Source of the DNA: Shigella phage Sf18
Length of the DNA stretch: 64,000 nucleotides
Direction: 5' to 3' (one strand)
Sequence record: MF158044
The position numbers and the translations under genes were made by a program. This document shows, one piece after another, positions 42,054 to 42,136 of the stretch. Under the pieces are notes generated by a model that did no database searches, was not told where the DNA came from, and worked only from the letters and a program-made list of their open reading frames with translations. Position 1 is the first letter of the stretch; the number at the start of each line of letters is the position of its first letter.

Positions 42054-42136
42054 ATGGGACGATGTTAAGACACTAAGGCATGTGCGACGGCCTCCAAAAC
42101 CGTTTCAAATGGGTTCGAATCCTACGTCCCATGCCA
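42054..42136 (+). tRNA. tRNA-Trp-like (anticodon CCA), atypical
   Basis: Anticodon loop CTCCAAA, G73, CCA, acceptor ATGGGAC/GTCCCAT; extra ~7 nt between acceptor and D-stem. Confidence 0.4.

Follow-up and report, generated by a model that had tools for sequence, protein, structure and literature searches.

The tRNA cluster of Shigella phage Sf18 contains an 83-nucleotide (nt) gene for a non-canonical transfer RNA (tRNA) that resembles tRNA-Trp(CCA) and carries its own encoded CCA end. We analysed this gene within a 64,000-nt stretch of the genome of this Ounavirinae phage (MF158044; hereafter the window), in which the tRNA cluster spans positions 40075-45003, and which is ~99% identical to Shigella phage Sf13 and to Silverhawkium (Mooglevirus) over the region searched. 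A first-pass annotation had described a tRNA-Trp-like gene with extra sequence inserted between its acceptor and D stems, and every part that it named can be read at the locus: the CTCCAAA loop, G73, CCA, an acceptor stem of 8 base pairs (bp) formed by ATGGGACG with CGTCCCAT, and an acceptor-to-D connector of 9 nt, compared with 2 in a canonical tRNA, which amounts to about 7 extra nt (Table 1).

Automated tRNA finders pass over the gene. ARAGORN called 25 tRNAs in the cluster, neither Trp nor Tyr among them, and left this position uncalled even at relaxed thresholds (down to -ps80). At the gathering score Rfam found 23 tRNAs in the cluster, and its tRNA model (RF00005, threshold 29 bits) gave no match at the gene at E values up to 10. 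The sole Rfam match there, obtained in a permissive scan, was a weak one to tRNA-Sec (RF01852), at 21.5 bits against a gathering score of 47; a tRNA-Sec identity was rejected on this score, on the anticodon, which is CCA and not UCA, and on the short variable loop. When 4 nt of the insert (GTTA, TTAA or TAAG) or 6 nt were deleted in silico, ARAGORN called the remainder as tRNA-Trp(cca). The gene departs from canonical tRNA architecture in its 9-nt connector, 3-bp D stem and 8-bp acceptor stem, and it has the other features of a canonical tRNA, namely a covarying four-stem cloverleaf, a T-loop TTCRA, a D-loop GG and a 3' CCA after the discriminator base. No standard cloverleaf with other boundaries was found that could replace the first-pass description: ARAGORN and Rfam are silent, and the RNAalifold consensus leaves the 9 nt unpaired.

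Table 1. Positions of the tRNA-Trp-like gene, its parts, its promoter and related features (window coordinates unless another sequence is named).
Feature	Position	Strand	Remarks
Whole gene, 83-nt non-canonical tRNA-Trp(CCA)-like RNA, encoded CCA	42054-42136	+	Covariance model 108.4 bits
Acceptor stem, 5' strand ATGGGACG, 8 nt, A1	42054-42061	+	Pairs with 42125-42132
9-nt connector ('E-loop') ATGTTAAGA	42062-42070	+	In place of the canonical 2-nt U8-N9 linker
D arm, stem CAC/GTG, 3 bp	42071-42084	+	CAC 42071-42073, GTG 42082-42084; loop TAAGGCAT containing GG
Single base C between D arm and anticodon arm		+	Sequence parse
Anticodon arm, stem GACGG/CCGTT	42086-42104	+	Loop C-CTCCAAA-A
Anticodon CCA (C34 C35 A36)	42094-42096	+	U33-like T at 42093, A37 at 42097
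C·A juxtaposition closing the anticodon stem	42091/42099	+	Conserved
Variable loop TCAAA, 5 nt	42105-42109	+	Class I; invariant in 19/19 variants
T arm, 4-bp stem TGGG/CCTA	42110-42124	+	Loop TTCGAAT
Acceptor 3' strand CGTCCCAT, discriminator G73, CCA	42125-42136	+	Strand 42125-42132, G73 42133, CCA 42134-42136
Promoter, -35 TTGACA, 17-nt spacer, -10 TAAGCT	42013-42041	+	-35 at 42013-42018, -10 at 42036-42041; ends 12 nt before the gene
TTGACA-N17-TAANNT sites	23857, 25115, 26164, 39927, 41579, 42013, 47647	+	-10 often TAAAGT
Ro60-like gene, 471 amino acids	38493-39908	+	Immediately upstream of the tRNA cluster; Pfam DUF2828+DUF7788; PHROG 850
Ro60-like homologue	L123 8001-9434
Ro60-like homologue	L124 8001-9461
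Ro60-like homologue	L126 8001-9401

Covariation, fold and distribution of the gene

We compared 19 distinct sequences of the gene, collected from BLAST, IMG/VR and metagenome scans. In a parse anchored on conserved segments, 5 of 399 pair cells were non-standard, the cells being 20 pairs in each of the 19 sequences and a fourth D-stem pair that two of them have. The alignment tested against shuffles was fitted to a covariance model, while the segment-anchored parse and RNAalifold are independent of that model. In the model-derived alignment, standard pairs made up 98.9% of 380 cells, against 87.3±1.0 in shuffles (0/500), and the covariation score was 0.351 compared with 0.132 (0/500). Changes on both sides were found in 9 of the 20 pairs, a number that 4 of 500 shuffles reached, and sliding the registers lowered pairing to 36-57%. 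The substitutions are spread over the molecule. Across the variants acceptor pair 1 is AU, GU or GC and pair 2 is UA or CG, with pairs 4-8 invariant. The D stem occurs as CAC/GUG, CUC/GAG, CGU/ACG and CACA/UGUG with 100% of cells paired; the anticodon stem occurs as GACGG, AACGG, GUAAG, GUAGG and ACUUG with matching partners, four of its five pairs being compensatory; and T-stem pair 1 changes from UA to GC, again in compensation. The U33-like T, the CCA anticodon, A37, G73 and the 3' CCA are invariant in 19/19, every D loop contains GG, and every T loop fits the consensus TTCRANY.

The RNAalifold consensus has an acceptor stem of 8 bp, 9 unpaired nt, a D stem of 3 bp, an anticodon stem of 5 bp and a T stem of 4 bp, and in this fold the window sequence has an energy equal to its minimum free energy (MFE), -20.5 kcal/mol. 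The eighth acceptor pair, an invariant G-C, shows no covariation, and the choice of an 8/4 over a 7/5 division of the acceptor and T stems is one of pairing potential: the 8/4 frame is preferred because 7/5 would need an invariant A·C mismatch at 49·65, where 19/19 variants have A·C. An A·C juxtaposition also flanks the D stem in 19/19. The closing position of the anticodon stem is C·A, or C·C in two lineages, and the D stem has 3 bp in the C·A copies and 4 bp in the two C·C copies; this pattern, drawn from few lineages, would hold the anticodon-plus-D stack at constant length. Other arrangements were tried and rejected. The D arm of the single-sequence MFE fold, AUGUU/GGCAU, fits the E. coli/Salmonella lineages and a divergent metagenomic copy (L117), fails in the Pectobacterium/Yersinia copies (1/5 pairs) and clashes with the covarying CAC/GUG stem. 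A pseudoknot joining the AUGUU/GGCAU and CAC/GUG helices was unsupported and seemed geometrically strained. A D arm GUUA/UAAG, with the extra bases on its 3' side, was also discarded: in three divergent lineages its TAA partner has turned into TAT, with TTA still fixed.

The connector itself does not vary. ATGTTAAGA is identical in 19/19 variants, the Pectobacterium, Yersinia and L117 copies included, even where both flanking stems have changed. A pairing of insert TAAGAC with GTCTTA in the following spacer (42139-42144) was rejected, since the spacer is replaced in three relatives (L087, L099, L103) and the insert is invariant. Because no pairing that we tried survives comparison, the insert behaves as a conserved single-stranded loop, and no splicing signal is evident for the unusual processing that the first-pass annotation had offered as an option. 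The invariance of the insert suggests that it would be kept in the mature RNA and be functional. Its fixed sequence could help to build the core, let the RNA evade a host nuclease directed at tRNAs, or be recognised by a phage factor.

The gene is widespread among relatives of Felix O1. The 83-nt segment had BLAST matches in 241 phage records; in 235 of them the match covers at least 80% of the gene, and Felix O1 itself is included (NC_005282, 26533-26615). No tRNA was annotated under the match in the 60 rows listed (~60 of the 241 GenBank records were inspected). Copies occur across Felixounavirus, Mooglevirus, Suspvirus and the Pectobacterium/Yersinia Ounavirinae, the last being more divergent (Pectobacterium phages Wc4, Wc4-1, Arno162 and Arno18; Yersinia phage P778), and scans of IMG/VR and metagenomes added further variants, the divergent L117 among them. 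In divergent copies (L029, 699-784; L098, 347-432; L117, 1339-1422) the acceptor stem deviates; all divergent copies retain the insert, the anticodon-loop core, G73 and CCA. A covariance model of the family detected a single copy, scoring 86-112 bits, in every one of the 59 homologous loci fetched, and gave ordinary tRNAs at most 38.9 bits. In three comparisons with relatives the gene was 91.6%, 76.7% and 76.5% identical, compared with means of 87.9%, 65.8% and 72.8% for genuine tRNAs. A host or bacterial origin was rejected: a pattern of the insert, TCCAA and GGTTCRA had 0 matches in 185,579 species genomes, and blastn of the gene against 5,426 E. coli genomes gave no match.

The promoter TTGACA-N17-TAAGCT that the first-pass annotation had placed upstream of the gene is present and belongs to an enriched class. 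TTGACA-N17-TAANNT occurs at 7 sites in the window, all on the + strand, where 0.51 were expected, and no shuffle reached 7. Relatives keep the -35 element as TTGACA or TTTACA. A generic sigma-70 scan omits the site, whose -10 element matches 3/6 positions, and reports there only an overlapping TTGAGA-N17-AATTAT at chance level. The assignment is thus supported as a member of a phage promoter class, from which transcription would presumably start. Of the remaining members of the class, the site at 39927 lies just before the tRNA cluster and the one at 41579 inside it; a further TTGACA-N17-TTATAG lies at 40018-40046.

Tryptophan identity marks and the weighing of explanations

The identity set of bacterial tRNA-Trp comprises G73, the CCA anticodon and A1-U72 (PMC9976931). 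C34 C35 A36 and G73 are both present in 19/19 variants, and the first pair is A-U in the window and in 12/19 variants, G·U in 4 and G-C in 3. The RNA shares with canonical tRNA-Trp(CCA), represented by E. coli trpT and Aeromonas phage B614, the YU-CCA-AA loop, G73, A1-U72, the encoded CCA, the 5-nt variable loop, the TTCGAAT T loop and the D-loop GG, and it differs in its 9-nt connector, its predicted 8/4 rather than 7/5 division, its 3-bp D stem and C·A at 31·39. Over its 3' half it shares 79.6% identity with an annotated Aeromonas phage tRNA-Trp. In the window (ARAGORN) and in the related clusters examined, no other tRNA-Trp was found. Of the 22 tRNAs listed for Felix O1 in its genome paper, none lies between 25584 and 26975 (PMC3185647). 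For Sf14, a near-identical Mooglevirus, tRNAscan-SE 2.0 gave 26 tRNAs for 19 amino acids in 2025, and the tables include Tyr(GTA) and no Trp (PMC12482277). Our literature searches returned no report linking Felix-O1-like phages with a Trp tRNA. Because neither published inventories nor these searches show a Trp tRNA, the element seems previously unreported, and it appears to fill the single gap in the 19-amino-acid set.

A 12-bp acceptor/T stack is recognised by RNase P and EF-Tu. We favour, at slightly better than even chances, a functional non-canonical tRNA-Trp(CCA) that is charged by the host tryptophanyl-tRNA synthetase (TrpRS) and retains its 9-nt loop as a rebuilt core or a recognition handle, because the Trp identity marks, U33 and A37, the elbow motifs and the 12-bp stack are kept and because E. 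coli is able to process, charge and use 8/4 tRNAs (PMC5389517). Under this reading, the gene would be transcribed from its own host-type promoter, RNase P would cleave the 5' end at A1 by way of the 12-bp acceptor/T-arm stack, and the 3' end would be trimmed to the encoded CCA. The product would fold into an 8/4-type cloverleaf (acceptor stem 8, T stem 4, D stem 3 and anticodon stem 5 bp, the last closed by C·A), with an elbow formed by the usual contacts between the D-loop GG and the T loop. ATGTTAAGA would stay in the mature RNA as an extra loop and rebuild the tertiary core instead of U8/N9. Given G73, C34-C35-A36 and A1-U72, host TrpRS would most likely charge the RNA, which would then read UGG.

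Several observations weigh against this reading. To our knowledge, no earlier RNA with an acceptor-to-D connector of 9 nt has been functionally validated. The core contacts U8·A14 and R15·Y48 cannot be mapped onto the RNA, the D stem has only 3 bp, and the single-sequence fold is no more stable than that of shuffled sequences (z = -0.32). The Pectobacterium/Yersinia copies combine G1-C72/C2-G71 with a bulged T in the acceptor 3' strand, and in metagenomic L117 acceptor pairs 2 and 3 are mismatched. Where E. coli tRNA-Trp has U31-A39, a predicted determinant (PMC9976931), the RNA has C·A, with C·C in two lineages. The nearest structural precedent, the E-loop (8/4) tRNA1, was not charged by the E. 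coli glycyl- and threonyl-tRNA synthetases (GlyRS, ThrRS) tested (PMC5389517). Finally, the Ro60-like gene adjoining the cluster makes a non-decoding role conceivable.

Such a role, in which a mimic keeps the shape and identity marks of tRNA-Trp for another function, is unlikely in our estimate, though of the competing explanations it survives best. Such a mimic might, as decoy or sponge, draw off a host defence nuclease aimed at tRNAs or another tRNA-binding factor, or it might serve the phage Ro60-like protein as client or partner, with the invariant single-stranded loop as the recognition handle. PHROGs labels the family of the Ro60-like gene 'RNA-binding protein', and an AlphaFold2 model of the protein (predicted local distance difference test score, pLDDT, 89) makes the protein, over its full length, a structural homologue of Ro60 (TROVE+vWA). 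Foldseek matched the model to Ro60 structures 2i91 and 1yvr, Xenopus Ro60 being among the matches (template modelling score, TM, 0.63; E about 3e-8), and also to Ro60 of Thermus phage phiLo. The likeness comes from the fold search only, and phmmer of the protein against PDB sequences found nothing. In three unrelated large phages, too, homologues of the gene have tRNA genes for neighbours: one has a tRNA cluster 600 nt downstream, another a tRNA 200 nt downstream and the third a cluster 4.8 kilobases (kb) upstream. Bacterial Y RNAs, the partners of Ro60/Rsr, mimic tRNAs (PMC4201824, PMC12135203), and here too a tRNA-like RNA shares a genome with a Ro60-like gene placed near tRNA-like genes. 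The strict invariance of the 9-nt loop resembles that of a sequence-specific binding site, and the uncharged E-loop precedent would also fit a mimic (PMC5389517).

The gene nevertheless lacks the hallmarks of a Y RNA (YrlA). The Y-RNA motif GNCGAA(N)G is absent from it, its 5' and 3' ends form an acceptor stem with G73-CCA and not a Ro-binding stem, and it has a full anticodon arm. RF02553 has no match at the gene; within the cluster region Rfam gave a single, weak YrlA match, which lies elsewhere (43939-44062, 21.6 bits). A Y-RNA identity was rejected on these grounds, and no Y-RNA partner was identified for the Ro60-like protein. The gene lies 2.1 kb from the Ro60-like gene rather than beside it, and it fills exactly the one gap left by a tRNA set for 19 amino acids. 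The invariant anticodon loop (U33, CCA, A37) is what one expects of a decoder, though also of a decoy for TrpRS or a nuclease.

It is also conceivable, though quite improbable, that the RNA is a Trp-charged tRNA whose codon recognition is relaxed by the altered connector and D arm and by the unpaired 31·39 position, so that CCA would read UGA or the effectively 9-nt loop would promote frameshifting. Mutations of tRNA-Trp(CCA) at 9 or 24, or unpinning of 27:43, raise UGA readthrough, in E. coli among others (PMC13092985). The known UGA-reading forms (Hirsh G24A, A9C and a 4-bp anticodon stem; PMC13092985) resemble our RNA in keeping CCA while the connector, D arm or anticodon stem is altered: here the 8-9 connector and the D stem are changed, and the anticodon stem has four Watson-Crick pairs (27-31/39-43 numbering) and the conserved C·A or C·C at 31·39. 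It is, however, this bottom pair that is unpaired and not the top pair 27:43, which is intact and covaries normally, and the change is an expansion by 7 nt instead of a point mutation. Nor does the genome appear to use UGA in frame. TGA ends 24 of 87 open reading frames (ORFs), and every long in-frame extension past TGA is the next gene, with its own Shine-Dalgarno (SD) sequence and ATG. Because these extensions are downstream genes, there is no sign of UGA reassignment or programmed readthrough, and both were rejected for want of in-frame TGA candidates in the genome.

We regard it as very improbable that the insert is excised and the ends rejoined, or that it is bypassed by alternative processing, to give a canonical tRNA-Trp of ~76 nt. 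The in silico deletions that make the gene acceptable to ARAGORN are in keeping with this, as is the unvarying sequence of the insert, which a processing signal might also show. Against it, there is neither a bulge-helix-bulge nor a group I intron structure, and no ligase or endonuclease was found among the 10 ORFs scanned in and around the cluster. We know of no bacterial or phage mechanism that excises a segment of 4-7 nt at such a position.

Least probable of all is a decaying tRNA-Trp pseudogene that tolerated an insertion, an option raised in the first-pass annotation and suggested by the rejection of the gene by tRNA finders, the L117 mismatches and Pectobacterium/Yersinia bulge, and other degenerate tRNA-like bodies in the cluster; on the comparative sequence evidence we consider it all but excluded in favour of a conserved gene, because compensatory substitutions hold all four stems and the functional nucleotides are invariant, because one copy is kept in every fetched homologous locus and in several genera, and because the gene is conserved at least as well as the neighbouring genuine tRNAs.

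Other features of the cluster and the upstream region

Further tRNA-like features lie in the cluster. ARAGORN misses a class II tRNA-Tyr(GTA) at 40633-40720 (+), which has a long variable arm, ends in ACCA and scores 22.8 bits in Rfam against the threshold of 29, with mismatches in its D and T stems; in published tRNAscan-SE analyses this tRNA is 'Pseudo (Tyr)' for Felix O1 and Tyr_GTA for Sf14. An ORF-free spacer of 450 nt (40804-41253, +), conserved in about 247 Ounavirinae genomes, holds a degenerate tRNA-Thr(GGU)-like body at 40984-41058, which scores 28.8 bits with the Rfam tRNA model, just under threshold, and is called tRNA-Thr in one GenBank record. The only match to the Ro-binding motif GNCGAA(N)G in the cluster, GGCGAAGG (41031-41038), lies in the variable/T region of this body, and GTCGTCCCATGAG (about 41130-41150) resembles the 3' acceptor strand of the Trp-like gene. 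Downstream of the Trp-like gene, the two arms of a 10-bp inverted repeat, TCTTATTAGG/CCTAATAAGA (42140-42149 and 42238-42247, +), enclose tRNA-Ser(TGA). The repeat would lengthen the acceptor stem of the tRNA-Ser precursor, with the discriminator bulged, and may be a processing helix; Pectobacterium phage Wc4-1 has a shorter equivalent.

Upstream of the gene, the segment 41955-41992 (+) contains TAAGGAGGTGGTCTGTATCTC, which occurs once in the window, hardly varies among relatives and is more conserved than the Trp-like gene itself. It agrees at 13/14 positions with what we take to be the complement of the 3' end of 16S ribosomal RNA, and is followed by a hairpin CATGTT/AACATG (41975-41992). 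L117 (about 1237-1285) retains AGGAGGTGATCTGTATCTCC with a different hairpin. A 7-codon ORF (MFSRTCK) behind the strong SD-like sequence at 41955 was rejected as coding, its frame being unconserved in Sl26 and L117. Between tRNA-Arg and the Trp-like gene there is also an indel polymorphism, a segment of ~23 nt containing the hairpin ATTGACT-TGAAAG-AGTCAAT (41931-41950, +), which is present in Mooglevirus and some Felixounavirus and precisely absent in others (DE7, Henu11).

Relation to known tRNAs and significance

Among known systems, the closest in architecture are the (8/4) tRNAs. The allo-tRNAs and the phage (8/4) tRNA-Ser and tRNA-His (PMC5389517) have the 12-bp, 8+4 acceptor branch that is predicted for the Trp-like RNA, and share with it occurrence in phage clusters and a longer anticodon helix. 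In allo-tRNAs the variable arm is long, the D stem is long and bears a tetraloop, and the identity is Ser or Ala (PMC5389517), whereas the Trp-like RNA is class I, carries Trp identity marks and an extra loop, and has a variable loop of 5 nt, a D stem of 3-4 bp and a D loop of 8-9 nt. An (8/4) tRNA1 with an 'E-loop' was described from polycistrons in a soil metatranscriptome (Mukai et al. 2017, PMC5389517; reviewed in PMC7609411), and it is likewise predicted to combine an 8/4 branch with an extra loop, to which the 9 unpaired nt of ATGTTAAGA correspond here. That RNA is probably acidobacterial, with U73, a GCU anticodon and a link to a toxin-antitoxin system. The Trp-like RNA, which is likened to it by fold and not by sequence, is instead a class I phage gene with a coherent Trp identity set and covariation across genera. 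It falls outside the criteria for canonical tRNAs, allo-tRNAs, tRNA-Sec, Y RNAs and the UGA decoders with a 4-bp anticodon stem, and we file it among the non-canonical tRNAs.

A bolder form of the favoured tRNA-Trp reading is a five-element tRNA that is Trp-charged, works on the E. coli/Salmonella ribosome and uses its E-loop as a functional handle. We consider this rather doubtful as a whole. Such a handle might allow the tRNA to escape or titrate host tRNA-directed defence, bind the phage Ro60-like protein, or retune decoding (UGA, frameshifting).

Felix O1 and its relatives are classic typing and therapy phages of Salmonella, E. coli and Shigella, with hundreds of genomes sequenced. The tRNA sets of these phages have repeatedly been analysed as serving 19 amino acids, and a conserved twentieth gene that tRNAscan-SE, ARAGORN and Rfam do not see changes that inventory; it also means that a class of structured tRNA variants systematically escapes the standard tRNA finders. 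A tRNA that accepts, and apparently needs, a fixed 9-nt loop replacing U8/N9 would test the rules for the tRNA core and for recognition by RNase P, TrpRS, EF-Tu and the ribosome, and E. coli with its phage is a directly tractable system. If the RNA is indeed charged with Trp and active on the ribosome, it would be the first functionally assignable E-loop tRNA, found in one of the best-studied groups of enteric phages. With its UGA-sensitive region altered and a Ro60-like gene adjoining the cluster, it also offers a concrete entry point to the manipulation of decoding, or of tRNA surveillance and defence, by these phages.

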